Of a DNA stretch of 64,000 nucleotides, positions 1-29,022 are shown piece by piece (position 1 is the first letter of the stretch; each line of letters starts with the position of its first letter). A program made the position numbers and the translations under genes. The notes under the pieces were generated by a model. The model searched no databases. It was not told the origin of the DNA and saw only the letters and a list, made by a program, of their open reading frames with translations. This DNA comes from Minisyncoccia bacterium (GTDB taxonomy: Bacteria; Patescibacteriota; Minisyncoccia; Phycocordibacterales; UBA9973). The stretch spans positions 14,244 to 78,243 of the forward strand of contig JBBRWS010000001.1 in assembly GCA_038249055.1 (NCBI GenBank), given 5' to 3'.

Positions 1-121
1 ATTTTGGAAGGATTTACTTGAAGCAGGAAGTTATGGTGAAGCACGCTCAAAAGGGAAAGTAAGAACAGAAGGCAAGGATTATATAGTGAAAAATGGGGAT
101 GTCGTAGAATTCAAAATTTAG
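1..121 (+). CDS. ychF: Ribosome-binding ATPase YchF, C-terminal fragment (TGS domain); gene starts upstream of window
   Basis: Frame 2 translates to FWKDLLEAGSYGEARSKGKVRTEGKDYIVKNGDVVEFKI-stop, typical YchF C-terminus (GKDYIV.DGDV..F). Confidence 0.55.
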   Translation, partial: FWKDLLEAGSYGEARSKGKVRTEGKDYIVKNGDVVEFKI

Positions 122-164
122 AGGTCCAACCTCGACTGATTTCGGAGGTTGTACCTCTAAATTT
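115..164. repeat. Palindromic element family A, copy A1 (reverse orientation relative to A2), ~19-20 bp arms aaatttagaggtccaacctc / gaggttgtacctctaaattt around an 11-nt asymmetric centre
   Basis: Inverted repeat read directly; shares core GAGGTCCAACCTC..GAGGTTGGACCTC with 3593-3639 and 28946-29022. Confidence 0.7.
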
Positions 165-195
165 TTTAATTTATCCTCGTAAAATTTATCAATAA

Positions 196-236
196 AAAAG
201 TCCTCGGATGAGGGAGTGATGGAAGCCACCCGGTAG
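196..236. repeat. GC-rich element family B, copy B1 (gtcctcggatgagggag..gaagccacccggt)
   Basis: GC-rich ~40-bp block in AT-rich spacer, about 80% identical to core of 16729-16767. Confidence 0.5.
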
Positions 237-293
237 GTCATTCTACTGAATGAGATATTTTTTATTGAAAAAATTTACTATGATTAAAGTCAT

Positions 294-851
294 ATGCAAA
301 ATAACTGGCTAAAAGTAATAAAGATTTTAAAAAACGATGGGGTAGTAGTGCTACCTACAGATACTTTGTACGGGTTAATTGCCAGTGCTTTTTCAAAGAA
401 AGCAATAGATAAAATATATAAAATAAAAGAAAGAGATAAAAGTAAACCTCTAATAGTTTTAATATCTAAAATTGAAGATTTAAAGAAATTTGGTATTAAA
501 GGTGATTTTTCAAAAGTATTTTTACCAAAAGTGAGTGTTTTACTTTCTAGTAGAAGTTTAAAATTTAAATATATTCATAGGGGGACTGGTGAAATAGCAT
601 TTAGGTTAATAAGTCAAAAAAATAAGAATTTATTTAATCTTGTAGAAAAAGTAGGACCAGTTGTTGCTCCTAGCGCAAATATTGAGAGCCTTAAGCCAGC
701 TGAGACAATAAAAGAAGCTCGTGGATATTTTGGGGATAATGTGGATTATTATATTAATGGAGGATTACGAAAATCTAAACCATCAACATTAATAAGAGTA
801 AAAAATGGAAACGTAGAAATATTAAGACAAGGAGAAGTAAAGATAAAATAA
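294..851 (+). CDS. tsaC: L-threonylcarbamoyladenylate synthase, YrdC/TsaC domain
   Basis: VVLPTDTLYGL motif and YrdC-like length (185 aa). Confidence 0.75.
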   Translation: MQNNWLKVIKILKNDGVVVLPTDTLYGLIASAFSKKAIDKIYKIKERDKSKPLIVLISKIEDLKKFGIKGDFSKVFLPKVSVLLSSRSLKFKYIHRGTGEIAFRLISQKNKNLFNLVEKVGPVVAPSANIESLKPAETIKEARGYFGDNVDYYINGGLRKSKPSTLIRVKNGNVEILRQGEVKIK

Positions 852-943
852 ACTCATAAATTTAATTTACATATTTTATATGTTATCTCGTATAAAATAT
901 GTATAAATAAAAAATAGGATTAAAATCTTTTTTGGTTTTAATC

Positions 944-1507
944 CTATTTTTTATTCTTTATATCTTGATGCTGTTTTTTTAATTCCATTACTTCTTCGAT
1001 GAGCTTACCCATTGTGTCTTCTATTCTTGTGAGAATCTCTTCATCTTCCTTTTCTTCTTTTTCTTCGTTCTCATCATCTTCTTGAATTTCTTCAACATCT
1101 TCCTGAATCTCATCCACATCTTTTTGAATTTCATCAACATCTTTTTCAATACCTTCCACATCTTCCTGAATCTCATCCACGTCTTTTTGAATTTCATCAA
1201 CATCTTTTTCGATACCCTCCACATCTTCCTGGATTCCTTCAACATCAAGAGCAACTGCACTCAACTTATCATCTTGACGATTAACTGACATCTGAATAAA
1301 TATAGATAAATAGATTGCCTCAAGAGATACGATTGTAGTTACTACTAAGAGTATTTTTTCAAAGGGGATTCCTAAAAAATATAATGTGAATGAAGATATA
1401 AATAATACTGTATGAATAAAAAGGGAACCAGTGGAACCCATCCACCTAGTTGCTCTAATGGAAACTTTTTCAAGCGCGTTACTTGATTTTGTGACTAATC
1501 TTCTCAT
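944..1507 (-). CDS. DUF1003-family membrane protein with acidic heptad-repeat C-terminal tail
   Basis: SLEAIYLSIFIQMSVNRQ resembles DUF1003 signature; tail DVEGIQE/DVDEIQK repeated about 9 times. Confidence 0.55.
   Translation of the reverse strand: MRRLVTKSSNALEKVSIRATRWMGSTGSLFIHTVLFISSFTLYFLGIPFEKILLVVTTIVSLEAIYLSIFIQMSVNRQDDKLSAVALDVEGIQEDVEGIEKDVDEIQKDVDEIQEDVEGIEKDVDEIQKDVDEIQEDVEEIQEDDENEEKEEKEDEEILTRIEDTMGKLIEEVMELKKQHQDIKNKK
1079..1250. repeat. Coding tandem repeat, 21-bp period with 63-bp super-period (2 full copies plus partials)
   Basis: Direct repeats ttcctgaatctcatccacatctttttgaatttcatcaacatctttttc(a/g)atacc(t/c)tccacatc; generates the spurious overlapping ORFs 1021-1260 and 1082-1288. 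Confidence 0.7.
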
Positions 1508-1673
1508 ATCCGGTGTTTATTATACACCCTAATTCTGTTATAATACAATAACTATGAATCTCGTTGGAGGATGTTATTACGGGATTGTTTATATTTTTAT
1601 TAATCATTATTAATTTAATCATACAGATTCGGTTTTTTTTGAAAGATAACGACCGAAACCTGCTTTTAGTTAT

Positions 1674-2690
1674 ATGGAAACACCAATACAAAAACCATCA
1701 TTAACACCAAGATTTTTCTTTATTTCTTTAGGTGTTCTTATAGCTCTTATAACTTCCGTTTCGTCTTTTCTTGTTTTGTATTTTGAAACTTTAAATAAGA
1801 AGTTTCCTGATGTATTAACTTCAACATATCAATATGGTTATAATTCTTACACATATGATACGATACGTTCCACATTAGCAACTCTTATAATATTTTTCCC
1901 CGTTTATTTATTATTGTCATATTACTGGAAAAAATTATCCAAGGCTGAATTAGGAATAAAAGATAATATTATTTTTAAGTGGATGATATATTTAATAATA
2001 TTTATTGCTAGTCTCGTAGTTGTTATTGATTTAGTTACACTTGTTAATTATTTTGTTTCGGGAGAAATTACAATTAGATTTATATTAAAGGTTTTAGGAG
2101 CTGCTATTCTTGCTTCTTTGGTTGGTTTTAATTATTTTTTTGAATTAAAAGATCATGTTATTTTAGATTCTAAAAGCAAAAAATCAATTATTTATGCTTC
2201 TTTTTCTATATTATTGTTTTTGGGTTTAATTATATGGAGTTTTGCAATTATGGGTAGCCCCTCACAACAACGCACCTGGAGATTAGATGATAAAAGGGTA
2301 AGTGATTTGCAGGGTATACAATATCAAATTATTAATTATTGGCAACAGAAAGAAAAATTACCAATTACATTATCCGAATTGTCGAATCCTATTTCCGGAT
2401 ATTCTGTGCCAGTTGATCCAGAATTTGAAAAAGGTTTAATTTATGAGTACAATCCTAAGGATACACTTTCATTTGAACTATGTGCTACTTTTGGGGCAGA
2501 TATACCCAAAGGATGGCAGGATTCTAATGTCACAGCATATAGAATGCAGGTTCCCATAGCAGAATACGACAAAACAACATCGTCATATCCTTATCCTGGC
2601 GGAGTTAATGAATCATGGGATCATAAAATAGGTAGAACTTGTTTTACTCGCACTATAGATAAAGATTTGTATCCACCAATAAAGAAATAA
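1674..2690 (+). CDS. Multi-pass membrane protein with C-terminal pseudopilin (GspG)-like region
   Basis: N-terminal hydrophobic helices; C-terminal LPITLSEL..PVDP..YEYNP..SFELCATF pattern reminiscent of type II secretion/type IV pilin globular domains. Confidence 0.4.
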   Translation: METPIQKPSLTPRFFFISLGVLIALITSVSSFLVLYFETLNKKFPDVLTSTYQYGYNSYTYDTIRSTLATLIIFFPVYLLLSYYWKKLSKAELGIKDNIIFKWMIYLIIFIASLVVVIDLVTLVNYFVSGEITIRFILKVLGAAILASLVGFNYFFELKDHVILDSKSKKSIIYASFSILLFLGLIIWSFAIMGSPSQQRTWRLDDKRVSDLQGIQYQIINYWQQKEKLPITLSELSNPISGYSVPVDPEFEKGLIYEYNPKDTLSFELCATFGADIPKGWQDSNVTAYRMQVPIAEYDKTTSSYPYPGGVNESWDHKIGRTCFTRTIDKDLYPPIKK

Positions 2691-2694
2691 AAAT

Positions 2695-5694
2695 ATGAAA
2701 AATTACGATCATAAAAAAATTGAAAAAAAATGGCAAAAAGAATGGGATAAAAATGGAATCTATAAGACCGTTAATGGAAAAGGTAAAAAGATGTATGTTC
2801 TTGATATGTTTCCATATCCGTCTGGAGTGGGTCTTCATGTGGGACACCCTCGTGGTTATATAAGTAGTGATGTATATGCTCGTATGAAGAGTATGCAAGG
2901 CTATAATGTGCTTCACCCTATGGGATATGATGCGTTTGGTTTACCAGCTGAACAGTATGCATTGCAACATAAAATACATCCCAGAAAAGCCGTTTTAGAA
3001 AATGTTAAGACTTTTAAGAAACAGCTTTCTATTATAGGACTTTCTTATGATTGGTCTCGAGAAGTAAATACAACTGACCCCAAATATTATAAATGGACAC
3101 AATGGATATTTCTTCAAATTTATAATTCTTGGTATGACAAAACAAAAAATAAAGCACGACCTATAAAAGAGCTTGAAATTATTTTTGAAAAAAGTGGAAA
3201 TCTAAAAGTAAATGCTAGTTGTAGTTTTGATGTAAAATTTTTTTCAGCAAAGGTGTGGTCTAGTTTTTCAAAAAAAGATAAGCAAGATATTTTAATGAAA
3301 TATCGTCTTGCTTATGAAGGACACAGTGAAGTAAATTGGTGTGAAAAAATGGGCACAGTTTTGGCAAATGATGAAATAGTAAATGATGCAAAAGGAAATC
3401 CAGTTTCAGAAAGAGGAGGATTTCCTGTTGAAAAAAAAATAATGCGTCAATGGTTTATGAGGATTACTGCATATGCAGACAGGTTACTATCTGGTCTTGA
3501 GGGGTTAGATTGGAGTGATCATATAAAAGAAATTCAGAAAAATTGGATAGGGAAAAGTGAGGGTAGTGAATTAGAATTTAAGATTTCAATTTCTTCAGAG
3601 GTCCAACCTCCGAAGTCAGTTGAGGTTGGACCTCTGAAGGTATTCACAACTCGTGCCGATACTATTTTTGGTGCGACGTATGTAGTGCTTGCGCCGGAAC
3701 ATCCTTTGGTTAATACCTTAAAATCAAATATATTAAACCAAGAGGAAGTTATTAAATATATAAAGTTAATAAAAAATAAGACTGATGAAGATCGTACTAA
3801 AAATGATAAGGAAAAAACAGGCGTAGAATTAAGGGGGGTTATGGCTATTAATCCAGCCAATGGAAAAGAAGTACCAATTTGGATAGCTGATTATGTACTC
3901 GCTACTTATGGTACAGGTGCTGTTATGGCAGTGCCCGCGCATGATGAGCGAGATTTTGAATTTGCAAAAAAATACAATTTAAATATAAAGCAGTCAGTAA
4001 TGCCAGTTTATGGGAATAGTGTTAAAGGAGAGGAATATAGATATGCTGTCTCAGCTTTTGTTAAAAGACCATCAGATGGTAAATATTTATTTATTAAGGC
4101 AAAAGAATTTAATCAAATTTCAAAAGTTTATGGTGGAATAGAAGAAGGTGAAAATCCTGTACTAGCTGGAATTCGAGAAGTTTTTGAAGAAACTGGATAT
4201 AAAACAAAATCAGTTACAGATTTTGGATTTTCAATTCAATCACATTTTCACCATCCCCATAAAAAAGTAAACCGTAAATTGATTAGTGATTTAGTAGAGT
4301 TGGAATTAATAGATGAAGAACAATATGAGGTAGACGAAGAAGAAGCATTGCTACATGAAGTAGTGTGGCTTACTCTCGATCAAGCAAAGAAATTAATCAC
4401 AAATCCAAAAGAATTATATGATTTTGAAATACGTGAGGGAAAAAAGTGTTTTACTGATGATGGTGTTTTGTGTAATTCAGACAATTTTTCGGGAATCTCT
4501 TCAGAGGCTGCTCGCATGCAAATAACAGAATTTGTTGGTGGAAAAATAGTCACAAAATATAAAATGAGAGACGCAATATTTGCACGTCAAAGATATTGGG
4601 GTGAACCAATACCGTTAAGGCATAATCTTGATGGAACTATAACTGAATTTAAAGAAAAAGATTTACCCCTTGAATTACCAAATGTTAAATCTTATGTTTC
4701 TATCGGTACAGGTGAGTCGCCACTTGCAGGTGTAAAGTCATGGGTAAAAGAAGGTTTTGAAACAAACACAATGCCAGGATGGGCAGGTTCATCTTGGTAT
4801 TTTTTAAGATACATGGACCCACTAAATTCAAAACAATTTGCATCAAAAAAGGCTATTGAATATTGGAGAGAAGTTGATATGTATGTAGGTGGACAAGAAC
4901 ATGCAACTGGACATTTACTCTACTCACGTTTTTGGAATAATTTCTTGTTTGATTTAGGTTGTGTTCCATTTAAAGAGCCATTTAAAAGATTAAAAAATCA
5001 AGGTATGATTCTTGCTACGGATGGGCGTAAAATGAGTAAACGTTGGAATAATGTTATAAATCCAGATGATATTGTTAATAATTATGGAGCTGATACATTA
5101 CGCATATATGAAATGTTCATGGGGCCATTTGAACAAAGTTTACCTTGGTCAACTGACAGCATTATTGGCTCACGTAGATTTTTAGATCGTATATACAGAA
5201 TTCAGGAGAAAGTTACAAATACAAAAAGTATTTTAGGTGTAGAAAAAATTATTCATAAGACTCTTAAAAAAGTAAGTGAAGATATTGAAAATTTTGCTTT
5301 CAATACAGCAGTATCTTCTATGATGATTTTAGTAAATGAGATTGAAAAGAGTGAATTTATTGGAAAAAATGATTTTAAAATATTTTTACAGATGCTCGCT
5401 CCTTTTGCCCCTCATATTACAGAAGAACTATGGGGTAATATAGGGGAAAAGAAATCTATTCATAAAAGTTCATGGCCTAAATGGGATAAAAAGAAAATAA
5501 TAGACGATGTGATTAAAATCGCTGTTCAAGTTAATGGAAAAGTTCGTGCTGAAATAATAATATCAAAGGACATGACAGAAGAAGAAATAAAAGATGTATC
5601 TTTGAAAGACAAAAATATAGTAAATTGGATTTTAAATAAAGAAATAAAAAGAATTATTTATGTTCCAAATAGAATTGTAAATATTGTTGTCTAG
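2695..5694 (+). CDS. leuS: Leucyl-tRNA synthetase, unusually long (999 aa) with editing domain plus an embedded Nudix domain and a small palindromic insertion
   Basis: HVGH and KMSKR class I motifs, TTRADTIFGATY editing domain entry, AHDERDFEFAKKY. Confidence 0.95.
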   Translation: MKNYDHKKIEKKWQKEWDKNGIYKTVNGKGKKMYVLDMFPYPSGVGLHVGHPRGYISSDVYARMKSMQGYNVLHPMGYDAFGLPAEQYALQHKIHPRKAVLENVKTFKKQLSIIGLSYDWSREVNTTDPKYYKWTQWIFLQIYNSWYDKTKNKARPIKELEIIFEKSGNLKVNASCSFDVKFFSAKVWSSFSKKDKQDILMKYRLAYEGHSEVNWCEKMGTVLANDEIVNDAKGNPVSERGGFPVEKKIMRQWFMRITAYADRLLSGLEGLDWSDHIKEIQKNWIGKSEGSELEFKISISSEVQPPKSVEVGPLKVFTTRADTIFGATYVVLAPEHPLVNTLKSNILNQEEVIKYIKLIKNKTDEDRTKNDKEKTGVELRGVMAINPANGKEVPIWIADYVLATYGTGAVMAVPAHDERDFEFAKKYNLNIKQSVMPVYGNSVKGEEYRYAVSAFVKRPSDGKYLFIKAKEFNQISKVYGGIEEGENPVLAGIREVFEETGYKTKSVTDFGFSIQSHFHHPHKKVNRKLISDLVELELIDEEQYEVDEEEALLHEVVWLTLDQAKKLITNPKELYDFEIREGKKCFTDDGVLCNSDNFSGISSEAARMQITEFVGGKIVTKYKMRDAIFARQRYWGEPIPLRHNLDGTITEFKEKDLPLELPNVKSYVSIGTGESPLAGVKSWVKEGFETNTMPGWAGSSWYFLRYMDPLNSKQFASKKAIEYWREVDMYVGGQEHATGHLLYSRFWNNFLFDLGCVPFKEPFKRLKNQGMILATDGRKMSKRWNNVINPDDIVNNYGADTLRIYEMFMGPFEQSLPWSTDSIIGSRRFLDRIYRIQEKVTNTKSILGVEKIIHKTLKKVSEDIENFAFNTAVSSMMILVNEIEKSEFIGKNDFKIFLQMLAPFAPHITEELWGNIGEKKSIHKSSWPKWDKKKIIDDVIKIAVQVNGKVRAEIIISKDMTEEEIKDVSLKDKNIVNWILNKEIKRIIYVPNRIVNIVV
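3593..3639. repeat. Palindromic element family A, copy A2, inserted within leuS coding sequence (18-bp perfect arms cttcagaggtccaacctc / gaggttggacctctgaag)
   Basis: Perfect inverted repeat read directly; encodes EVQPPKSVEVGPLK in LeuS, which has no counterpart in E. coli LeuS at that position (about 10 residues longer than E. coli here). Confidence 0.75.
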
Positions 5695-5775
5695 TTATAT
5701 TAATTTTCATTGTGTATAATTACTCAATCTTATTCATTACTTATCAAAAAAAAATAATTTCTATCAAAATTAGCA

Positions 5776-7504: not shown

Positions 7505-7668
7505 AGTTCTTTGAATTTAAGGCTCTTTTTGGTAGTATAGATTTATGTCTCCCGTTAGAGATGTGTATGTCATAATCTACGGGATAGTTTACAATAGAAA
7601 TAAGGTTTATATTACTAAATAAAATTAATAAGATACGTCCCATATAAAGAGGGACTATCTCTAACGGG

Positions 7669-9492
7669 ATGGATATCAAATCAATTAGAAATTTTTCAAT
7701 CATTGCCCACATTGATCACGGCAAGAGTACTTTGGCTGACAGAATGATTGAAGTTACTGGTACGATTGAAAAGCGTAAAATGAAAGACCAGGTTCTAGAT
7801 TCAATGGATTTAGAAAGAGAGAGAGGAATTACTATAAAAATGCAACCTGTTCGTATGGAATATAAGTTAAAAAATGATAATTACATTTTAAACTTAATCG
7901 ATACACCTGGTCACATAGATTTCTCGTATGAAGTATCTCGTGCCCTAAAGGCTGTGGAAGGGTCTATACTCCTTGTGGATGCGACTCAGGGAGTGCAAGC
8001 ACAAACACTGACCACTTTACAAATGGCTCGTGACTCAGGGCTCGTAATCATTCCAGTGCTTTCAAAGATTGATTCTCCACTAGCCCGCGTTGATGAAATA
8101 AAAATGGAAGTTTCTATTTTATTAGACATAGATCCTGATTCTATATTACTTGTTTCTGGAAAGACTGGAGAAGGAGTAGCTTTATTACTTGAAGAAATAA
8201 TAAAAAAAATACCTTGTCCTCATGTAAATGAAAACCTTTTATTAGCAACTAATACTGGGCGTGCCTTAGTTTTTGATTTTAAATATGATAATCATAGAGG
8301 AGTTATAGTTTATATTCGGGTTGTTGACGGGGGTTTTAAAAAAGGGGAATCTCTTCTTTTTGCTGTTTCTTCAGAAAAATTTATTTCACTTGAAGTTGGA
8401 ACATTTTCTCCAGAAGAAGAGCCTCGGGATTATTTGGGTAGTGGAGAAATTGGATATATAGTTACTGGAATTAAAAAGCCAGGAATAGCATCCGTAGGAG
8501 ATACTATTACTTTTCTTAAAAAACCAATGCCACCTTTACCAGGTTATCAAAATCCTAAACCAGTAGTTTGGGCTTCTATATATCCAGAAAGTCAGGATGA
8601 TTTTCCAAATCTTAAACAAGCACTAAGCAGATTGCGTTTATCAGATTCATCTTTTTCTTATGAAGAAGAAAATTCTGGATCACTCGGTAGGGGGTATAGA
8701 TGTGGATTTTTGGGAATGCTTCATTTAGAAATTATTACAGAAAGATTAAATCGTGAATTTAATTTGGAATTAATAGTAACTATGCCTTCAATCACTTATA
8801 AAGTATTACTCCGTAACGGTGTTGAACAAATTATATATTCTCCTCATCTTTTTCCTGACGATGGAAATATTGTAAAAGTATTTGAACCGTGGGTTAACGT
8901 AAAGATTATAACCCCTTCTATTTATATAAGTTCGCTTATGCCATTTTTATATGATCATGAAGGATTAATAAAAGGCACAGATAATTTTGGAGATAATAGG
9001 TCATCTATTGATTTAGAAATGCCGTTACGCGAACTAATGCGTAATTTCTTTGATGATATGAAAAGTATTACTTCTGGTTATTCATCAATTTCTTATGAAA
9101 TAGGAGAGTATAAAGAAGCCGATGTAGTTAGACTAGATATAATTGTAGCAGATGAACCAATGGCAGCTTTTTGTAGAGTAGTATCACGTAGAAAAGTTGA
9201 AGAGGAAGCTAAGCAACAAGTTGAAAAATTGAAAGATATTATTCCAAGGCAGCAGTTTAATTTTAAAATTCAAGGCAAAGCGTTAGGTAGAATTATTTCA
9301 TCTGAATCAGTTTCTGCCTTCCGTAAAGATGTTCTTATGCATGGTAGTAAAATGGTTGGAGGAGGGGATGTGAGTCGTAAAAAGAAATTACTTGAGAAAC
9401 AAAAAAAGGGTAAAAAGAGAATGCAGGCAAATGCAAAAATAAATATATCTCATGAAGTTTTTTTGAAAATGATGAGAGGAACAAATAGTTAA
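7669..9492 (+). CDS. lepA: Elongation factor 4 (LepA)
   Basis: IAHIDHGKSTLADR G-domain, length 607 aa, LepA C-terminal domain. Confidence 0.95.
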   Translation: MDIKSIRNFSIIAHIDHGKSTLADRMIEVTGTIEKRKMKDQVLDSMDLERERGITIKMQPVRMEYKLKNDNYILNLIDTPGHIDFSYEVSRALKAVEGSILLVDATQGVQAQTLTTLQMARDSGLVIIPVLSKIDSPLARVDEIKMEVSILLDIDPDSILLVSGKTGEGVALLLEEIIKKIPCPHVNENLLLATNTGRALVFDFKYDNHRGVIVYIRVVDGGFKKGESLLFAVSSEKFISLEVGTFSPEEEPRDYLGSGEIGYIVTGIKKPGIASVGDTITFLKKPMPPLPGYQNPKPVVWASIYPESQDDFPNLKQALSRLRLSDSSFSYEEENSGSLGRGYRCGFLGMLHLEIITERLNREFNLELIVTMPSITYKVLLRNGVEQIIYSPHLFPDDGNIVKVFEPWVNVKIITPSIYISSLMPFLYDHEGLIKGTDNFGDNRSSIDLEMPLRELMRNFFDDMKSITSGYSSISYEIGEYKEADVVRLDIIVADEPMAAFCRVVSRRKVEEEAKQQVEKLKDIIPRQQFNFKIQGKALGRIISSESVSAFRKDVLMHGSKMVGGGDVSRKKKLLEKQKKGKKRMQANAKINISHEVFLKMMRGTNS

Positions 9493-9536
9493 AACTACAT
9501 AAAAACACCTATAAATAGGTGTTTTTATGTAGTTTT
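9492..9536 (+). terminator. Long hairpin aaactacataaaaacacctat / ataggtgtttttatgtagttt after lepA
   Basis: About 20-bp perfect stem followed by T-rich run. Confidence 0.7.
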
Positions 9537-9709
9537 ACTCCAAGATTAGACGTAAAAAGGAAGTTTAAGCACCTCTTTTAATTCATAAGGCCCGGAATAT
9601 ATAGTAAAATCATACTTATTATTACAAGTATTGAAACTACTGCAAAAGCTCTCTCTATTCTTTTTTTATTTCTTGAATTGAAATTCATGATATAATACTA
9701 CCATTAAAT

Positions 9710-10093: not shown

Positions 10094-10164
10094 GCGGGAT
10101 TGGTTTAGTGGTAGGATGCGACCTTCCCAAGGTTGAGGCACGAGTTCGATTCTCGTATCCCGCA
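10094..10164 (+). tRNA. tRNA-Gly (anticodon CCC)
   Basis: Acceptor gcgggat/atcccgc, anticodon loop ttCCCaa, T-loop ttcgatt; hand-folded. Confidence 0.75.
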
Positions 10165-10197
10165 CATATTTAAAAACACTGAAAGGTGTGTTTTTAA

Positions 10198-10342
10198 ATA
10201 TGTGCGGGATAGTAAGCCAACTGCTTGGCTTACGTGCGAGAATCGAAAAGCTTTTCGTTCTCCGATGGATATCGGAGCGAAAAGGTGTACTGAAGCTGTA
10301 AGCTTCGATAAACGTACTCGCGGTCTCGTATCCCGCACATAT
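10198..10342. repeat. tRNA-Gly-linked structured unit 1: 14-bp terminal inverted repeats atatgtgcgggata...tatcccgcacatat (right end identical to tRNA-Gly 3' end), internal hairpins
   Basis: TIRs and hairpins (gtaagcc-aactgc-ggcttac, ctccgat-ggat-atcggag, cgaaaagcttttcg) read directly. Confidence 0.6.
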
Positions 10343-10374
10343 CTAAAAAGACTCTTTAAAGAGTCTTTTTTAAT

Positions 10375-10540
10375 ATATGTGCGGGATAGCAAAAGAACTG
10401 CTTCTTTTGCGTGCAACGATTAGTAAATCGAACCGTGAGGAGAATCGAAAGGCTTTTCCTTGTCGAAGATGGAAAAGCACCAGCGACCGTGATTTACAAA
10501 AATCACCTACTGGGTCAGGCGAGATTTTTGTATCCCACAT
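10375..10540. repeat. tRNA-Gly-linked structured unit 2 (diverged paralog of unit 1; right TIR degenerate tatcccacat)
   Basis: Same start atatgtgcgggatag, same hairpin loop aactgc with compensatory stem caaaag/cttttg, shared gagaatcgaaag(g)cttttc block. Confidence 0.55.
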
Positions 10541-10929: not shown

Positions 10930-11001
10930 GCCCTCGTAGTTCAATGGATAGAACAGTTCCGTCCTAAGGAATAGATGCACGTTCGATTCGTACCGAGGGC
11001 A
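10930..11001 (+). tRNA. tRNA-Arg (anticodon CCT)
   Basis: Acceptor gccctcg/cgagggc, anticodon loop gtCCTaa, T-loop ttcgatt (one C-A mismatch in T-stem); hand-folded. Confidence 0.6.
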
Positions 11002-11386: not shown

Positions 11387-11459
11387 GCCTAGATAGCTCA
11401 GTTGGTAGAGCGCTCCCCTGAAGAGGGATAGGTCCCCAGTTCAAATCTGGGTCTAGGCA
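11387..11459 (+). tRNA. tRNA-Phe (anticodon GAA)
   Basis: Acceptor gcctaga/tctaggc, D-arm tagctcagttggtagagc, anticodon loop ctGAAga, T-loop ttcaaat. Confidence 0.7.
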
Positions 11460-12065: not shown

Positions 12066-12086
12066 TATCTTTTCGCTCGATAAAAT

Positions 12087-12116
12087 AAAAAATCCTGACT
12101 TAAGTCAGGATTTTTT
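12087..12116. terminator. Bidirectional hairpin aaaaaatcctgac-ttaa-gtcaggatttttt
   Basis: Perfect stem flanked by A/T runs between convergent genes. Confidence 0.6.
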
Positions 12117-12119
12117 ATT

Positions 12120-12614
12120 TTATATTGATTTAATCTTTAATTTTGTTTCTCTATTTTTATCCAACTTAGGAAGTTTGATAATTAATAGCCCGTGTTTTTC
12201 TATTGCCTCTGCTTCTTCTGGGTCAACTTCTTCTGGAAGGGAAATGGTTCTTGAGAATGAACCCCAATAAAGTTCTTGTACAAAATAATTATCTTTTTCT
12301 ATTGATTGGTTCTCTTCGCGTTTACCACGTATAGTAATCATATCGCGAGTTATAGTAATAGAAAGATTATCTGGCTGTACTCCTGCTACCATTGTTTGGA
12401 CAATAATATCTGTTGGAGTTTGGTATAAGTCTACAGTTAATTCTGCATCTATTTCTTCTTCCCATTTAGATTCTCTTTGTTCATGGTTATCTTTAGTGGG
12501 AGAATTAATTTTTCTATTTGCTCCACCAAGGTAATTTTCTTCTTCGTTTTCTTCGTTTTCTTCAAATCTCATACTACCAGTTAAACGTTCTAAAAATGAT
12601 CTCTTTTTTGGCAT
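12120..12614 (-). CDS. Small heat shock protein, Hsp20/alpha-crystallin family
   Basis: Alpha-crystallin domain pattern ..TVDLYQT..ITIRGKRE..GSFSRTISLPEEVD..AEAIEKHGLLIIKLPK. Confidence 0.75.
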   Translation of the reverse strand: MPKKRSFLERLTGSMRFEENEENEEENYLGGANRKINSPTKDNHEQRESKWEEEIDAELTVDLYQTPTDIIVQTMVAGVQPDNLSITITRDMITIRGKREENQSIEKDNYFVQELYWGSFSRTISLPEEVDPEEAEAIEKHGLLIIKLPKLDKNRETKLKIKSI

Positions 12615-16253: not shown

Positions 16254-17525
16254 TTATAAAGATAAATTGCCTTTGGCTTTAATAGTATTTATATTTTTTA
16301 TAAATTTTTTATTTTTAGCTTGGAAGTATCCCGCGATAGCTATCATTAGGGCATTGTCTCCAGTCAAACTTTTAGAAGGAAAATGAACTTTTACTTTTAA
16401 TTTATTTTCTTTAATTTTTTCAGACATTATTTTTTGCAGATAAGTATTTGCAGAAACACCACCCCCAACAATAAGAGTTTTTATTTTATATTCTTTAATT
16501 GCTTTAATTGTTTTATGAGTTAGTACTTCTACAACTGCATCCTCGAATTCGCAAGCTATTTTTTGCTTTATATCTATATCATTTAATATATTAGGATTTT
16601 GAATTTTTAAATCTCGCACAAGATATAGCACCGCTGTTTTTAACCCAGAAAATGAAAAATCATAATCTTTTGAATAAATCATAGGACGGGGTAAATTTAT
16701 TGCCTTCAGTAATATGCTTGATTTTTCAGGTCCTCGGACGAGGGAGGACGAGGAGCCAGACCGTGAAAAATCAAGCATATTACTTTCGTCCTTACGTTTT
16801 GCTGAAGCTAATTTTGAAATCTCTGGTCCTCCAGGATAAGGAAGTCCAAGCATACGAGCCACTTTGTCAAAAGCTTCGCCAGCCGCATCGTCTCTTGTTT
16901 GTCCAATTTTTTTATATTTTTGCCAATCTTTTACAATAACAAGTTCAGTATGTCCACCAGAAACTAAAAGAGAAAGCATTGGGAATTTAATGTTGTTTGT
17001 ATCTACTGTAAAATTTTTGGTTTTTTTAGGAAAAATAGAAAAGACATGTCCCTCCATATGATTAACAGAAACGATTGGTATATTCCAATAGGTACTGAGT
17101 GCTTTTGCAAAACTTATCCCTACCCATAGTGCAGGCTCTAAACCAGGTCCTGTTGTTACAGCAATAGCATCAATTTTAGGTTTTTTTATTAGAGGCATTA
17201 TTTCCATCCATCTATCTTGAATCTCGTTTTCTCTATCCAAAATTTTATGAACTTTATTTTCTAATTTATTATCAGATTGAGTCTTTTTATTTAAAGAATA
17301 CATTTTTGATTCTTTTAGTACTTTCACTAAAATGTGTAAAATATTTCTTCCATGTTCACGCTTGGCCATCATAGGGAAAACACCACCATATTGAGCATGA
17401 AGAGCTATTTGGGAAGATATTTCATTTCCAAGTATTTTAAATTTAATTTTTTTGCCTTCTTTTTGCGTATCTATTATAGACAAGGCTGTCTCATCACAGG
17501 AAGTTTCAATTGCTAATATTCTCAT
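16254..17525 (-). CDS. tsaD: tRNA N6-adenosine threonylcarbamoyltransferase TsaD (Kae1/Gcp), with ~27-aa insertion
   Basis: MRILAIETSCDETALSI.., ..GGPEISKLA.., DYDFSFSGLKTAV; 423 aa vs ~340 typical. Confidence 0.9.
   Translation of the reverse strand: MRILAIETSCDETALSIIDTQKEGKKIKFKILGNEISSQIALHAQYGGVFPMMAKREHGRNILHILVKVLKESKMYSLNKKTQSDNKLENKVHKILDRENEIQDRWMEIMPLIKKPKIDAIAVTTGPGLEPALWVGISFAKALSTYWNIPIVSVNHMEGHVFSIFPKKTKNFTVDTNNIKFPMLSLLVSGGHTELVIVKDWQKYKKIGQTRDDAAGEAFDKVARMLGLPYPGGPEISKLASAKRKDESNMLDFSRSGSSSSLVRGPEKSSILLKAINLPRPMIYSKDYDFSFSGLKTAVLYLVRDLKIQNPNILNDIDIKQKIACEFEDAVVEVLTHKTIKAIKEYKIKTLIVGGGVSANTYLQKIMSEKIKENKLKVKVHFPSKSLTGDNALMIAIAGYFQAKNKKFIKNINTIKAKGNLSL
16708..16788. repeat. 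Element family B, copy B2: 20-bp perfect inverted arms gtaatatgcttgatttttca / tgaaaaatcaagcatattac flanking 41-bp GC-rich core, in-frame within tsaD
   Basis: Read directly; 81 bp = 27 codons encoding MLDFSRSGSSSSLVRGPEKSSILLKA, which has no counterpart in E. coli TsaD. Confidence 0.7.
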
Positions 17526-22043: not shown

Positions 22044-22047
22044 TAAT

Positions 22048-22656: not shown

Positions 22657-22660
22657 TTTT

Positions 22661-23905: not shown

Positions 23906-23916
23906 ATAAAATTATA

Positions 23917-24424: not shown

Positions 24425-24436
24425 TATACTTCTTTC

Positions 24437-24536
24437 TAAATTTTTGATTAGTAAAAAATCTTGAAAATATGTAGTATGTATAATATAAGGATGTGTTAAA
24501 AATAATTAATATTAAAAATTTTAGTACTGGGATGGA
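24437..24536. repeat. Junction element C, copy C3 (left arm degenerate), immediately upstream of murC start
   Basis: ttagtaaaaaatcttgaaaatatgt...taaaaataattaatattaaaaattttagtactgggatgg about 85% identical to C1 interior and right arm. Confidence 0.55.
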
Positions 24537-25854
24537 ATTAGATTTATCAAAAATTAAAAATGTGCACTTTATAGGTATTGGAGGAATAGGTATTTCAGCG
24601 ATTGCCCGTATGATGCTTCATGATGGAAAAATAGTAACTGGGCAGGATATGCAAGAAGGAGAAGTGGTAAAAGAGCTTATTAAACTTGGAGTTGATATAA
24701 AAATAGGGCAATCATATGAAAATATACCCTTAGATACTGATTTAATAGTTTATACTATTGCAATAGATACTTATGACTCAGATTTGGCTTTAAAAATAAA
24801 AACTCAAACAGAAATTCCAGTTCGTTCATATCCTCAAATGCTTGATATTATAAGTAAGGATAAATATACAATTGCGGTTTCGGGAACTCATGGAAAGACA
24901 ACTACAACAGCTATGATTGCCCAAATTCTGCGTGGAGCGGAATATGATCCAACTGTAATAGTTGGAAGTTTACTTGTGGGTGAAAAAAGTAACTTTATTG
25001 CTGGAGATAGTAAATATTTGGTTGTTGAAGCATGTGAATATAGAAGGTCATTTTTAAATATAAATCCTAAAATTTTGGTTATTACTAATATTGATAATGA
25101 CCATTTAGATTATTATAAAGACATAGAAGATATTAAGAGCGCATTTCACTCGATGGCTTTGAAAGTACCAGAAGATGGATATGTAATTTGTAATCCAGAG
25201 GATAAAAATATCGCTGATGTGATAAAAGATATTAATGCTAAAGTTGTAAATTATAATGATTTTTTTAATGTAAATTTAAAGTTGAAAATTCCTGGAATTC
25301 ACAATAAAAAAGATGCAGCAGCAGCGATTACAGTAACCACAATCCTAGGTGTTTCTATTGTTGACTCAGAAAAATATATCGGCGAATTCCCAGGGACCTG
25401 GAAACGATTTGAATTTAAAGGCACTTTATCTCAGGGTTCACTCTTGTATGATGATTATGCTCACCACCCTACAGAAATAAAAGCAACACTTGAAGGATTT
25501 AGAGAATTATATCCCAAGAAAGATAAATGGATAATTTCTGTTGTTTTTCAACCTCATTTATTTAGTCGTACAAAATTACTTTTATATGATTTTGCAAAAA
25601 GTTTTAAAGAAGCCGATGAAGTTATCATTTTACCAATTTATTATGCAAGAGAAACTGACGACGGGACTATAAGCTCAGATATTTTATGCTCGGAGATAAA
25701 TAAAATTAGTAACAATTCTAAATCTTTTGAAAACTTTGAAAGTGCAGAAATATATTTAAAAAATAATCTTTTAAAAATGGATAATAAAAATATTATAATT
25801 ACTATGGGGGCAGGTGATGCTGGAGATGTTGGGGACTCTCTTTTAAAAGGATAA
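24532..25854 (+). CDS. murC: UDP-N-acetylmuramate--L-alanine ligase MurC (start placed at ATG of MELDLSKIKNVHFIGIGG; the ORF-track GTG start at 24493 lies in repeat C3)
   Basis: VHFIGIGGIGISAIA, GTHGKTTTTAMIAQIL. Confidence 0.9.
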   Translation: MELDLSKIKNVHFIGIGGIGISAIARMMLHDGKIVTGQDMQEGEVVKELIKLGVDIKIGQSYENIPLDTDLIVYTIAIDTYDSDLALKIKTQTEIPVRSYPQMLDIISKDKYTIAVSGTHGKTTTTAMIAQILRGAEYDPTVIVGSLLVGEKSNFIAGDSKYLVVEACEYRRSFLNINPKILVITNIDNDHLDYYKDIEDIKSAFHSMALKVPEDGYVICNPEDKNIADVIKDINAKVVNYNDFFNVNLKLKIPGIHNKKDAAAAITVTTILGVSIVDSEKYIGEFPGTWKRFEFKGTLSQGSLLYDDYAHHPTEIKATLEGFRELYPKKDKWIISVVFQPHLFSRTKLLLYDFAKSFKEADEVIILPIYYARETDDGTISSDILCSEINKISNNSKSFENFESAEIYLKNNLLKMDNKNIIITMGAGDAGDVGDSLLKG

Positions 25855-25971
25855 ATATTCATTGTGGTATAATACACGAGTATCTGAACTTTTAGGTAGG
25901 TGGCTTTTTTAAGTAAATTATAAAATATAATAAAGAAATGATTAATTCATAATGTCATTTTTATTAAATAA

Positions 25972-26802
25972 ATGAAAAATTTTTTTCTCTCTCTGGTCAT
26001 TCCAATATATATTTTTACAGCTATACCAGTTTTTGCTGGTGAGCTTATTAATTCAGGGTTTATCCCTGGTCAAATTTGGTATTCAAAAGATACTTTAATT
26101 GAAGGTGATACTGTAAATATACATTCTGCTGTTTGGAATGGAGAAAAGGAGTCAATTATAGTGAAGATTGAATTTTACGATAAAAATGTAATTTTGGGGA
26201 ATAGGGAAGTTGTTGTAAATTCGATGGAGTTAAGGGATATTTATGTACCATGGAAAATTACATCTGGAGATCATGTTATATCAGCAAAGATTATTTCATC
26301 ATTGGTGACCATTTCTGGGAAAAAAGAAACAGTTTTATTAGAAAGAAACACAACTTCTAATGATAGACAATTTATAGAGGTCGTAGTTAAAAATAGTCTT
26401 GGTGAATCTGTATCTCAAACAGATGCATTAAAAAATCAAATAGGTAGGACAACTTCTGAAATAAGTAATATTGTTCCCGAAGAAGTAAGTACGACAATTT
26501 CGGGTGGTTTTTTGAGTATAGATAATTTACGTGATAAAACTTTTACAAAAGTAGATTCTATAAGGAATGAAACTAAAAAAGAAATAAACTTACTAAATGA
26601 TAAAGAAATCGTTGTAAACAAAAATCCAGAAAATAAAAGTAGTATAGAAGATGCGACAAAGAAACCTATTACATATATTAAATTATTTTTATTTTCAATT
26701 CTTTCTTTTATTTTTGGTAGCAAGATAGTTTTTTATGGTTTCATAATAGCCATCTTATTTTACTTTTTTCGTTTTATTTATCGTAAAATAAGAAACAAAT
26801 AA
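25972..26802 (+). CDS. Hypothetical exported protein with C-terminal membrane anchor
   Basis: N-terminal signal-like helix, C-terminal hydrophobic segment; no recognisable domain. Confidence 0.35.
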   Translation: MKNFFLSLVIPIYIFTAIPVFAGELINSGFIPGQIWYSKDTLIEGDTVNIHSAVWNGEKESIIVKIEFYDKNVILGNREVVVNSMELRDIYVPWKITSGDHVISAKIISSLVTISGKKETVLLERNTTSNDRQFIEVVVKNSLGESVSQTDALKNQIGRTTSEISNIVPEEVSTTISGGFLSIDNLRDKTFTKVDSIRNETKKEINLLNDKEIVVNKNPENKSSIEDATKKPITYIKLFLFSILSFIFGSKIVFYGFIIAILFYFFRFIYRKIRNK

Positions 26803-26842
26803 TAGATTTGTCAATATATGTTTTTTACAGTATAATCTCATT

Positions 26843-27133
26843 ATGAAGAGGATAATTTTTGATATAATATTGTTTATTACTATATATATATTTCCTTGGT
26901 GGGTTGGGTTTTTACTGTTAATGGTAGGATTATTTTATTTTGATAATTTTTATGAATTTATAATTATTAGTGCAATTATTTACTCATTATATTCAGTTCC
27001 TGGTTTAGGAGTAATTTCTTCTTCGGTATTTTTCCCTTCAATTATTATTATTTTATATATTATTGTTCAATCTGTAAAAAATAATATTATTCATTATAAA
27101 AATGAATCGTATAGTATAAATAGAATTATTTAA
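26843..27133 (+). CDS. Small polytopic membrane protein (MreD-like by position upstream of PBP2; weak)
   Basis: Three hydrophobic helices; mreD-mrdA synteny is the only support. Confidence 0.3.
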   Translation: MKRIIFDIILFITIYIFPWWVGFLLLMVGLFYFDNFYEFIIISAIIYSLYSVPGLGVISSSVFFPSIIIILYIIVQSVKNNIIHYKNESYSINRII

Positions 27134-27220
27134 AAAACAAACACAATCAGTATATTATTTAAACTTTAATAAAATAAAAAGAGAAATGATTGAATCATAA
27201 CGTCATTTATCAATATTCGA

Positions 27221-28918
27221 ATGAAATTTCATATAAATCAAAAAAGAATAAAAAAAGATATTGATCCTGATGAAATTTTTCTAGATTCCAAGAATTTACC
27301 TAATTTTAATACTCAACAATTTGAAGGAAGGCTAGAAAAGGCAATTCCAAAACACTCTATTTTTTTAATAGGAATATTTTTTATTTCAGTTCTTTTTATC
27401 TTTATTTGGCAAGTATTTAATCTTCAAATAATAAAGGGAGAGGCTTATTTAAAAAAAAGTGAAAATAATACGCTAATGAAAAAACCTATTTTTGCGGATA
27501 GGGGCTTAATTTACGACCGTAAGGGAGTAATACTTTCTTGGAATAAATGGGATAATGAGGATATTAATAAGTTATCATCTCCACAAAGATCTTATTTTCC
27601 TTCACCTGGATTTGGATTATTGCTTGGTTATGTAAGCCAACCAGCGAAAGATTCTTCTGGTTATTATTGGCAAGATGAATTTATCGGAAAAGATGGAGTA
27701 GAAAAATTTTTTAATGATAGGTTAACTGGCATTAACGGTGTTCGCATAACAGAAACAGACGTAGGTGGTATTGTTCAATCTGAGAACATGATATTATCTC
27801 CGCAGTCAGGAGAAAATATTAATCTTTCTATTGATTCACAAATTCAAAAAAAAATGTACGAATCAATTTCTTTAATGGCAAAAAATTCTAATTTTATGGG
27901 AGGTGCAGGTGTTATTATGGATATAAAATCTGGCGAAATTTTGGCAATTACAAGCTATCCTGAATATGATGGCAATGTTTTGTCTTTAGGTAAAGATACT
28001 AAAACTATAAATGGATATTTTTCAGATAAACGAAAAGTTTTTTTGAATCGTGCAGTTTCTGGGTTGTATAGTCCAGGGTCAATAATCAAACCATTTTTGG
28101 GTTATGCAGCATTAGTTGAAAATGTTATTAGTCCAGTAAAAGTAATCCTTTCAAATGGTTCTATTTCAATTCCAAATCCATACTATCCCGAAAAAAGATC
28201 TGTATTTAGAGACCACGGTTCTTTTGGTTATGTAGATATGAAAAAGGCTATTGCTATTTCTTCTGACGTATATTTTTATCAAATAGGAGGAGGTTTTGAG
28301 AGTCAAAAAGGGTTAGGTATTATTAATATTGATAAATATTCACGAATATTTGGAATTGGAGAAAAAACAGGTATTAATCTTAATGGTGAAAAAGATGGAA
28401 CAATTCCGACTCCCGAATGGAAAACAAAAACATTTAAAGGTGAACCTTGGAGAGTTGGAGATACATACAATACATCCATTGGACAGTATGGTTTTCAGGT
28501 TACTCCTATACAGATGGTAAAAGCTATTGCTGCTATTGCTAACATGGGTATGGTTTATACTCCTCACATAACACTTGCTGATAAAAGTTTTGAATCACAA
28601 ATTACAAATATTCCAATTGATGCAAATAAAATAAAAACAATATACGAGGGTATGAGAATGGCCGTGACGGAGGGAACTTGTGTAGCACTTAATATCCCAA
28701 AAGTTAAAGTTGCAGCAAAATCAGGTACAGCTCAGGTTGGTTTAGGAAATACTAATACAAACTCATGGATTGTTGGATTTTTCCCATACGAGAATCCAAG
28801 ATATTCTTTTGCTTTGGTTATGGAAAGAGGTCCTAAGGCCGCATCGGGGAATGCTACTCGAGTAATGAGTGAAGTAGTAGATTATATGAGTGTTTACACA
28901 CCCGAATATTTACAATAG
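27221..28918 (+). CDS. mrdA: Penicillin-binding protein 2 (class B transpeptidase)
   Basis: SxxK (SIIKP), SxN-like SSD, KSG(T) triad; N-terminal TM and dimerisation domain. Confidence 0.8.
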   Translation: MKFHINQKRIKKDIDPDEIFLDSKNLPNFNTQQFEGRLEKAIPKHSIFLIGIFFISVLFIFIWQVFNLQIIKGEAYLKKSENNTLMKKPIFADRGLIYDRKGVILSWNKWDNEDINKLSSPQRSYFPSPGFGLLLGYVSQPAKDSSGYYWQDEFIGKDGVEKFFNDRLTGINGVRITETDVGGIVQSENMILSPQSGENINLSIDSQIQKKMYESISLMAKNSNFMGGAGVIMDIKSGEILAITSYPEYDGNVLSLGKDTKTINGYFSDKRKVFLNRAVSGLYSPGSIIKPFLGYAALVENVISPVKVILSNGSISIPNPYYPEKRSVFRDHGSFGYVDMKKAIAISSDVYFYQIGGGFESQKGLGIINIDKYSRIFGIGEKTGINLNGEKDGTIPTPEWKTKTFKGEPWRVGDTYNTSIGQYGFQVTPIQMVKAIAAIANMGMVYTPHITLADKSFESQITNIPIDANKIKTIYEGMRMAVTEGTCVALNIPKVKVAAKSGTAQVGLGNTNTNSWIVGFFPYENPRYSFALVMERGPKAASGNATRVMSEVVDYMSVYTPEYLQ

Positions 28919-28945
28919 TTAGTAGGATAAAACCTTTACTTCTAT

Positions 28946-29022
28946 ACCTACTTGTAGAGGTCAAACCTCCGAAACCAATTAGCCCAGTAGGTGATTGTAC
29001 TCAATCAAGGTTGGACCTCTAA
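28946..29022. repeat. Palindromic element family A, copy A3 (~23-bp arms cctacttgtagaggtcaaacctc / gaggttggacctctaaaagtagg with ~38-nt centre)
   Basis: Inverted repeat read directly between mrdA and greA. Confidence 0.65.

Follow-up and report, generated by a model that had tools for sequence, protein, structure and literature searches.

A stretch of 64,000 nucleotides from the genome of a Minisyncoccia bacterium (Patescibacteriota; assembly GCA_038249055.1, contig JBBRWS010000001.1, positions 14,244 to 78,243 of the forward strand), hereafter the window, carries three copies of a short palindromic element that we call family A (copies A1 to A3), one of them inside the leucyl-tRNA synthetase gene leuS. 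Family A probably represents mobile repeats of the REP/REPIN type, that is, repetitive extragenic palindromes (REPs) arranged as inverted doublets (REPINs), associated with a REP-associated tyrosine transposase (RAYT). Each element consists of a very short unit, the putative REP, present twice in inverted orientation around a spacer of 10-12 nt; the ancestral long form has a 37-nt spacer that contains a small inner hairpin. The repeats would be the cognate DNA of conserved ~220-aa RAYT-like Y1 (HUH) transposases of Patescibacteria. Y1 (HUH) enzymes cut and rejoin single-stranded DNA at hairpins. The doublets would be moved in trans, in single-stranded hairpin form and probably at replication forks, by a RAYT whose gene lies elsewhere in the genome, the presumed substrate being single-stranded AGAGGTCCAACCTCT hairpins. 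New copies would survive where they are harmless, either right after stop codons, as in the terminator-like A1 and A3, or in the surface loops of proteins, where doublets of 39 or 42 bp would add ~13 harmless residues because their arms contain no stop codons.

Three copies of family A in the window

The shared core, GAGGTCCAACCTC and GAGGTTGGACCTC around a loop, is found at 121-157, 3598-3634 and 28957-29019 (Table 1), and all three palindromes are where the initial annotation of this DNA had placed them. The 13-mer core occurs 7 times in the window when up to two mismatches are allowed, against 0.25 expected (~28-fold), and not one of 100 dinucleotide shuffles reaches 7; the AGGT-N3-ACCT motif also occurs 7 times, against 0.45 expected. 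A fold of each copy had been suggested as a check, and all three fold far better than shuffled sequence as RNA (z = -5.5 to -6.0, 200 shuffles); folded as DNA they have free energies of -17.8 to -21.5 kcal/mol.

A1 has the arms GAGGTCCAACCTC and GAGGTTGTACCTC and the 11-nt loop GACTGATTTCG, and its stem including flanks (113-133/145-165) is 21 nt long and 95% paired. It is fused to the 3' end of ychF (plus strand), whose stop codon TAG (119-121) is made up of the flank bases TA and the first G of A1, and a T-run follows. Because its loop is the reverse complement of the A2 loop at 9 of 11 positions, A1 is in reverse orientation, as had been stated. The arms of A2 are perfect and surround the 11-nt loop CGAAGTCAGTT; with its flanks it forms a perfect stem of 18 bp (3593-3610/3622-3639). 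A3 differs by one change in each arm (GAGGTCAAACCTC and AAGGTTGGACCTC) and by a long centre, which measures 37 nt and not the 38 nt first reported. Its stem (28947-28969/29007-29029) contains three mismatches and it has no T-run. A PBP2-like gene has its stop codon 28 nt before the element, and a greA-like gene lies downstream. Outside the core each copy has mirrored flanks of its own, just as initially described: aaattta/taaattt in A1, cttca/tgaag in A2 and cctacttgta/taaaagtagg in A3.

Family A across Patescibacteria

Searching with a two-arm pattern yielded 28 loci among species-representative genomes. These carry the labels Morani-, Nomura-, Uhr-, Lipton- and Paceibacteria and Saccharibacteria, apart from one bin labelled Bdellovibrionales. 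Metagenomes contributed a further 84 loci, and in viral contigs the pattern had no match. The element-centred Patescibacteria loci fetched from metagenome-assembled genomes (MAGs) and metagenomes, numbered L below, total 835 kb. With one mismatch tolerated per arm and duplicates merged, they contain 103 unique copies. The initial annotation had made its case for a repeat family depend on further copies, and public Patescibacteria DNA supplies them in this number.

The spacer is 10, 11 or 12 nt long in 84 of the 103 copies. The arms are nearly invariant, and the loops fall into several classes (TAGCTGGCTTCG, ATGTGGCCCCA, TTTGGTTTTC and others). Most copies, about two thirds, share a conserved mismatch between the arms, CCA versus TGT, which places a C opposite a T. 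The unit itself is a mini-hairpin, AGGT-N3-ACCT, which in the lineage of the window reads AGAGGT-CCA-ACCTCT, and the doublet can be folded either as one long hairpin or as two mini-hairpins. For statistics on the flanks we used the 77 copies of the main AT-rich subfamily, 49 of them intergenic and 28 inside open reading frames (ORFs) of at least 200 aa. The 5' foot of these copies reads NYAG (A at position -1 in 65/77, C or T at position -2 in 57/77), and a GTAG foot occurs in a minority of copies only, A3 among them. Orientation relative to transcription is mixed.

Several other identities were considered and set aside. A tRNA-like or T-box-like RNA is disfavoured by the mixed orientation and by the lack of Rfam support: at gathering thresholds an Rfam scan of the whole window returned three tRNAs only, and permissive scans around A1 and A3 returned only sub-threshold chance matches. 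A small ORF (MTYW...) over the inner module of A3 is too short, and its orientation is mixed. GTCCAAC/GTTGGAC fits the R''/R' consensus of integron attC sites, but there is no cassette context and there are no L boxes. Binding sites of the parS or matS kind would leave the added protein residues unexplained. Doublets do not appear to arise in place from singlets, since the loops are conserved between loci and doublets are therefore copied as units, and a second arm made by fold-back is hard to reconcile with the conserved arm mismatch.

A RAYT-like Y1 transposase bordered by the repeats

All-against-all clustering of 716 neighbouring ORFs gave recurrent families that were all housekeeping, and most copies have no transposase within 4-7 kb. 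A screen by motif and phmmer identified a 221-aa ORF in L108 (HVHLLL...YIHLNP) with exact GAGGTCCAACCTC/GAGGTTGGACCTC doublets at both ends of the gene. Its product passes the Pfam model Y1_Tnp (PF01797) with 39.5 bits against a cut-off of 23, and has 6850 homologs at E <= 1e-5. The top 120 of these are ~220 aa long and 56-71% identical (median 59%), and their named sources are all Patescibacteria. The family is marked by PNHFH as its HUH motif, YIHLNP as its tyrosine motif and LFQG at the position of the W motif. A divergent member, recognised by the hidden Markov model (HMM) of the family at E = 8e-47, is encoded in L098, which has a GC content like that of the window (0.30), and here two doublets of the window dialect abut the 3' end of the transposase gene.

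In nine further homologs, taken from independent contigs, a palindrome of this design overlaps the gene or lies within ~2-140 nt of it (9/9). The AGGT-N3-ACCT core is kept in eight of the nine; in L120 the unit has diverged (AGGC-CCG-GCCT) and the downstream flank is masked. All 11 family genes examined are thus accompanied or overlapped by such palindromes, two of them (L108 and L098) by the exact window dialect. Elsewhere the outer stems are specific to the lineage (GCAAGGT..ACCTTGC; GCGAGGT..ACCTCGC; ATCAAGGT..ACCTTGAT; CGTAAGGT..ACCTTACG; CCCGAGGT..ACCTCGGG). Counted over seven of the genes, 15 units lie in 3.4 kb of flanking DNA, where ~0.05 would be expected; the genes themselves contain 7, and the other 25.6 kb contain 4. 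The internal unit recurs at a conserved position ~160-200 nt from the start (L108:682, L114:2665, L116:1225, L117:2662, L118:2671 and L122:3861) and encodes a ...G.T(S)L... segment. The gene order Tgt-LigA-RAYT-pilins is common to two genomes, which suggests that the transposase gene is fixed and not itself mobile.

The repeats and the transposase genes are associated. From this association and the known behaviour of Y1 enzymes we infer that the RAYT-like proteins mobilise the repeats. A selfish palindrome unrelated to the Y1 transposase, comparable to the Rickettsia palindromic elements (RPEs) or to MITEs (miniature inverted-repeat transposable elements), could produce the same association if elements simply pile up on each other. 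In-frame insertion is indeed the hallmark of RPEs, for which we know of no mobilising enzyme, and the scarcity of transposases near most copies would fit. We nevertheless consider this origin improbable, given that every family gene examined carries units, that the dialect of the units tracks the lineage of the gene, that the internal unit has a conserved position, and that neither direct target-site duplications nor terminal repeats derived from insertion sequences (IS) are present.

Still less credible, to the point of being nearly negligible, is the idea that the 13-mers are DNA uptake sequences for competence, with inverted pairs doubling as terminators as they do in Neisseria. Patescibacteria rely on taking up DNA, the copies often have pilin and competence-type genes as neighbours, and the units do form inverted pairs after genes. 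However, known uptake sequences are far denser than ~1 per 20 kb, singlets are nearly absent from the window, the loop and the inner module are conserved, and the units associate with a transposase gene.

In-frame copies inside genes

About a third of the main-subfamily copies (28/77) lie inside ORFs of at least 200 aa that encode identified housekeeping proteins. In-frame entry into genes, for which the initial annotation had compared the single leuS copy with RPEs, is therefore general in the family. Copies are spanned by 34 stop-free frames of at least 150 aa, some copies giving two; 26 begin with EVQP, 7 with GGPTS or RGPTS, and 1, in a GC-rich genome, uses the third frame. The arms contain no stop codon in any frame, and the third frame is closed solely because the terminal CTC-TRA of the element supplies a stop. 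The hosts are LeuS, an IleRS-like synthetase, Tgt, a UvrB-like protein, LigA, TsaD and the RAYT gene itself.

The same protein sites are used repeatedly. In the IleRS-like synthetase the copy immediately precedes AWTTTPWT, which marks the corresponding entry of the editing domain. The copies in seven Tgt orthologs occur in both orientations and vary in offset and loop length, and L121 has a doublet of its own dialect in frame in Tgt. At the UvrB site there are good copies in L066 and L072, a decayed copy in L079 and an unrecognisable one in L035; the copy in L072 is the exact inversion of its orthologs, and L079, L035 and L066 represent decayed or drifted copies and not empty sites. The TsaD loop has a baseline of 13-14 aa, and ~45 of 120 close homologs carry 10-30 extra residues from family A, from a second family described below (family W) or from other repeats. 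The loop that contains family W in the window contains a family-A doublet in L123, the closest TsaD relative. Comparison of orthologous sites shows the later history of copies: they may decay, shed their centre through a deletion, become inverted or be overwritten where they stand.

The leuS copy illustrates such an insertion. Read in frame, A2 is EVQPPKSVEVGPL (EVQP...EVGPL), a segment of 13 aa and not the 14 aa first counted, the following K being native and kept in the element-free homolog L029. The linker between WIGKSEG and VFTTR, measured in 117 LeuS homologs, is 15 aa long in 70 (range 13-37) and 25 aa in the window. The 13-aa insert is absent from 116 of the 117 and from L029, the closest other homolog. 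Alignment with relatives, which had been proposed as a check, thus reveals an extra segment and not one conserved in LeuS of distant taxa. The same leuS codon is filled in L018 and in L030/L052. LeuS of the window, L018 and L029 are about equally related (81-83% pairwise identity, 81% between the window and L029). Compared with L018, the leuS copy of the window has one difference in the 26 nt of its arms and six in the 11 nt of its loop; third-codon positions nearby are heavily diverged. Other lineages have other low-complexity inserts in the same loop. The alignments support the view that the leuS copy is an insertion into a variable linker and not a conserved feature of LeuS.

LeuS of the window has, in addition, a NUDIX domain (aa 448-569; PF00293, 37.8 bits against a cut-off of 21.1) inserted in its CP1 editing domain, whose profile match ends at position 146 of 185, just before NUDIX. 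This domain is absent from L018 (868 aa) and present in L030/L052 and in the homolog P0003. In L029 an IS200-type TnpA (1237-1752; PF01797, 122 bits) directly follows leuS, which there ends prematurely at aa 380. A peptide I(K/T)NYEL(R/L/K)IK recurs in the L029 LeuS linker and in the TsaD linkers of P0248, P0251, P0254, P0288, P0333 and P0342; the L029 copy is encoded by heptanucleotide-like repeats (GAATTA + C/A).

The position of so many copies right after stop codons raises the question of whether family A might be a non-mobile structured RNA, terminator or protein-binding site under selection, with the flanks as covariation of a basal stem. A1 has the anatomy of a bidirectional intrinsic terminator (A-tract, GC-rich stem, T-run), the leuS orthologs preserve the arms far better than the loop, and the flanks covary as pairs. 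Yet the copies are of mixed orientation to transcription, a third of them interrupt coding sequence with residues absent from homologs, some lineages have let them decay, there is no Rfam match, A/T-tract flanks are present in only 9-11 of the 49 intergenic copies, and the units cluster tightly around the transposase gene. This explanation therefore seems to us very unlikely.

Observations that weigh against a REP/REPIN-RAYT system

Several observations count against the reading of family A as RAYT-associated mobile repeats. The sole NCBIfam match of the L108 protein is REP_Tyr_transpos, at 45.6 bits, which is below the equivalog cut-off of 80. The conserved GT[AG]G foot of REPs is lacking, NYAG standing in its place, and a class of repeats defined as extragenic would not be expected to have a third of its copies in genes. 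Searches of the source genome for RAYT genes and for repeats cover the 64 kb of the window, and the family HMM finds no member there; the link between a RAYT and this genome would run through L098 and L108, which share its dialect. Copy density is modest, with three copies in the window and 2-3 exact doublets on contigs of 180-600 kb. When both flanks of every copy were searched by BLAST, no clean pair of filled and empty sites at high identity was found, and the 'empty' sites that were found differ by replacement and not by simple insertion. The leuS site is a case in point: the L029 linker reads KNYELRI, and the window carries SISS together with the 13 aa at this place, which again is not a clean pair.

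The mirrored flanks

Flanks that form a stem of at least 5 bp occur in 43% of copies in both settings, intergenic (n=49) and in-ORF (n=28); permuting the right flanks among copies gives 7-8%. No such excess is seen in the Moraniibacteria and GC-rich subfamilies, in which each 13-mer folds alone, and selection for terminators is therefore not the cause. The junction dinucleotides are TA..TA in 25 copies, CA..TG in 18 and mixed pairs in 1, and they covary as base pairs. Since CA..TG is not possible as a direct duplication, the flanks are inverted and not direct repeats. This agrees with the initial annotation, which had described locus-specific inverted flanks in place of direct target-site duplications. 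Pairing at positions 1-6 is 88, 73, 69, 61, 49 and 39%, where 76% is expected at the nearly invariant position 1 and 25-36% at the others. Copies of family W in ORFs likewise have mirrored arms, of 8-21 bp.

The flanks add no length in TsaD of L109 (27 aa, the sum of a 14-aa baseline and a 13-aa core) or in LeuS, so they were either present beforehand or rewritten in place; the length of TsaD in the window fits either two extra arms or one. Orthologous copies have compensatory differences in their flanks: CTTA/TAGG in L008, CATA/TATG in L091 and TTTA/TAAA in L043. In a peptide-level test the arms of the TsaD homolog P0249 allow an 18-nt perfect inverted repeat that differs from that of the window, where 40 shuffles reach at most 15; the test was uninformative for six other homologs.

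We hypothesize that, once a long hairpin is present, template switching within it during replication would rewrite one flank as the complement of the other, which would lengthen the stem and leave the length of the sequence unchanged. Quasi-palindrome correction by intramolecular template switching has been described in E. coli, phage T4 and yeast, and it too perfects inverted repeats without changing their length. The flanks of family A resemble its products in that they add no residues and differ compensatorily between orthologs. Two observations stand against this step. Such correction should erase the conserved C.T arm mismatch, which about two thirds of copies still have, and decay of the copy in L079 has gone uncorrected.

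The other possibility is that the flanks pre-exist, the same element entering the single-stranded apex of hairpins already in the target, such as old terminators or older copies, so that the stem of the target becomes the outer stem. This would equally account for flanks that add no length in L109 TsaD or LeuS, and for nested copies in the loops of older hairpins (L015 2804-2884; family W of the L008 type). The outer stem of A3, CCTACTT/AAGTAGG, resembles the GC-containing cores of ordinary terminators in this genome, and HUH enzymes require single-stranded substrates (PMC8266576). On the other hand, palindromes of 14-18 bp would be needed at exactly the few permissive protein loops, although the flank statistics in ORFs and intergenic regions are equal, and TsaD of the window, an essential gene, would have needed a perfect 42-bp palindrome to give its 21-bp arms. 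In L015 the inner copy is bordered by a 7-bp mirrored flank foreign to any normal loop sequence, and orthologous copies have undergone compensatory changes after insertion. We regard apex targeting as rather doubtful and tentatively favour symmetrisation in place by template switching within the hairpin, while granting that this too may well prove wrong. Neither reading explains the lasting arm mismatch or the uncorrected decay in L079.

More speculatively, insertion or later maintenance could involve hairpin-templated writing of copy-specific inverted duplications, giving stems of up to 21 bp even in essential genes, together with a phylum-wide, anciently co-inherited RAYT-REPIN partnership that still inserts segments of ~13 residues into the surface loops of essential enzymes in these ultra-small genomes. 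We raise this combination as a conjecture that is unlikely to hold in full. To our knowledge, hairpin-templated writing of inverted flank duplications has not been described for any transposable element.

The long form and family W

The long form of A3 has homologs in L010 and at L030:5762. At the site orthologous to A1, L030 has the long-centre form and a separate ychF TAA stop. The 11-nt loop of A1 aligns to the 3' end of the L030 long centre, so the short form is an internal-deletion derivative of the long-centre form. Comparing L030:5825-5900 with window positions 100-121, we note a second copy of AATTCAAAATTTA after the L030 ychF TAA, with the long element 56 nt downstream; the interval between the ychF end and the element is absent from the window, where the element supplies the stop codon.

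The inner module of A3 is common to the long forms in A3, L010 and L030 and to family W, and its hairpin covaries between copies (GATTG/CAATC, CATTC/GAATG, CAATC/AATTG). Family W is represented in the window by the element at 200-256, which is enclosed by an AT-rich inverted repeat (170-199 / 258-287), and by a short core in TsaD, where the insert reads SNMLDFS-RSGSSSSLVRGP-EKSSILL; the 21-bp arms of this TsaD copy occur nowhere else in the data. Other copies of the family W core, GTCCTCGGAYGAGGG..., are at L025:7365 and at L072:2646, 4999 and 8257. Some copies of the family occupy spacers and others are read in frame within TsaD, Tgt and UvrB; their mirrored arms, specific to each copy, reach 21 bp. 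L030 has two copies (2735-2843 and 5636-5719), one with a compensatory change in the hairpin. Family-A doublets are nested inside family W in L008, L043, L091 and L101, and nested copies also occur in L001 and in L015 (2804-2884), where one copy lies in the loop of another.

Table 1. Palindromic elements of the window and the leuS gene that hosts A2 (coordinates count from the first base of the window)
Feature	Position	Strand	Description
A1, doublet hairpin	113-165		Cores 121-133 and 145-157; loop 134-144; mirrored flanks 113-120 and 158-165
Family W element	200-256	+	GTCCTCGGATGAGGG...CCCGGTAGGT-CATTC-TACT-GAATG-AGAT; inner module of the A3 type, without GAGGTCC arms
leuS ORF, 999 aa	2695-5694	+	Intact, Pfam-supported; A2 lies in the linker WIGKSEG-VFTTRADT at the entry to the editing domain
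A2, doublet hairpin in leuS	3593-3639		Cores 3598-3610 and 3622-3634; loop 3611-3621; flanks cttca 3593-3597 and tgaag 3635-3639
Family W short core in TsaD	16708-16784		Core 16729-16763; perfect copy-specific arms of 21 bp; TsaD on the minus strand, ~16257-17525
A3, long-centre form	28947-29029		Cores 28957-28969 and 29007-29019; outer mirrored stem 28947-28956 / 29020-29029
A3 inner module	28970-29006	+	CGAAACCAATTA, GCCCAGTAGGT, then the hairpin GATTG-TACT-CAATC
Single AGGT-CTA-ACCT unit	49061-49071		Isolated; perhaps a chance match, perhaps a REP singlet in another dialect (~0.45 such units expected by chance in the window)

Other repeats in the window

The window contains further palindromic repeats. 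On the minus strand at ~10490-10540 lies one more instance of the module in which CCCAGTAGGT is joined to a small hairpin, here GATTT-TTGT-AAATC, without the ends of either family A or family W. A segment of ~122 nt (~7556-7677) that abuts the start codon of lepA and is absent from the syntenic L052 has 13-bp terminal inverted repeats (TCCCGTTAGAGAT / ATCTCTAACGGGA) and looks like a MITE insertion. A palindrome between A3 and greA (29076-29124; CATAGATCCCGTTAG... / ...CTAACGGGAATTATG) has the CCCGTTAG motif in common with it. Two long palindromes at 10156-10211 and 10329-10388, with TATCCCGCACATAT in common, form another repeat family beside tRNA genes; the tRNAs of the window are at 10094-10164, 10930-11001 and 11387-11459. 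Many perfect, locus-specific palindromes of 18-28 bp lie in spacers (9490-9537, 12080-12123, 43262-43299 and 51016-51071) and have a small GC-containing core between an A-tract and a T-tract; in appearance they resemble ordinary bidirectional terminators.

Comparison with known systems

REPINs are inverted REP doublets that fold into a hairpin or clover. Their spacer is conserved less well and shows compensatory changes, they enter or abut one another, and they are tied to a RAYT that they flank (PMC3116915). TnpA-REP enzymes recognise single-stranded REP hairpins, with irregularities of the stem setting the choice of strand, and the REP of S. maltophilia has an 8-bp stem and a 3-nt loop (PMC8266576). 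In some subclasses REP units lie inside the tnpA-REP genes, as reported in a survey of complete genomes that makes no mention of the candidate phyla radiation (CPR) (PMC6006769). Family A shares with the REP/REPIN-RAYT systems of E. coli, Pseudomonas and Stenotrophomonas its short, dispersed and over-represented palindromic units; the inverted doublet that folds as one hairpin or a two-hairpin clover around a less conserved spacer; new copies in or beside old ones; a conserved stem mismatch; and a Y1/HUH gene that is flanked by, and sometimes contains, the repeats. With the REP of S. maltophilia it shares the short perfect stem and 3-nt loop.

It also departs from these systems. The unit is much shorter (11-15 nt conserved), copy number is modest, and about a third of the copies are in frame in essential genes. 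Whereas classical REPs are specific to a species or genus, AGGT-N3-ACCT is constant across classes of a whole phylum, and in contrast to REPINs the stems are extended by copy-specific mirrored flanks. The transposase is longer than known RAYTs (~220 aa), has LFQG where known class 2 subclasses have WQ or WE, and falls below the NCBIfam equivalog cut-off.

The resemblance to RPEs that the initial annotation drew stands in part. Like RPEs, family A places palindromic repeats in frame at tolerated surface positions, adds a peptide and lacks an adjacent transposase. RPEs are ~100-150 bp long, however, and family A is set apart by its length (37-63 bp) and its hosts (Patescibacteria MAGs), and has a candidate enzyme in the RAYT. 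MITEs such as the Correia elements of Neisseria are likewise small non-autonomous inverted-repeat elements at gene ends, occasionally in ORFs, with terminator-like effects, but they have terminal inverted repeats of the IS type and direct target-site duplications, whereas the flanks of family A are inverted (CA..TG in 18 copies; the TA..TA of 25 copies is ambiguous) and its partner is an HUH enzyme. Among known kinds it is REP/REPIN with a RAYT-type Y1 transposase, and not the RPE, that comes closest, and family A is a non-canonical variant of it. The core sequence does not occur in the published literature, and we found no paper linking Patescibacteria or CPR with REP, RAYT or MITE elements; a REP/REPIN-type system is new for this phylum, for which we found no published description.

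Implications

REP/REPIN-RAYT systems have been studied mostly in Proteobacteria and defined as extragenic, and the same kind of system now appears across a phylum of reduced genomes. With a core conserved across classes, it would be among the most ancient repeat-transposase partnerships known. Mirrored flanks in two element families, equally frequent in genes and spacers, point to an uncharacterised step.

As RPEs do, the repeats add peptide segments at recurrent hotspots, here in LeuS, an IleRS-like synthetase, Tgt, UvrB, LigA and TsaD. The RAYT-like protein is a candidate enzyme for the in-frame insertion of palindromes, a question that is open for RPEs. For annotation it matters that the repeats create stop codons, as in ychF, change the lengths of proteins and may mislead gene calling in MAGs. 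They also offer a concrete source for many of the lineage-specific loop insertions in CPR proteins.

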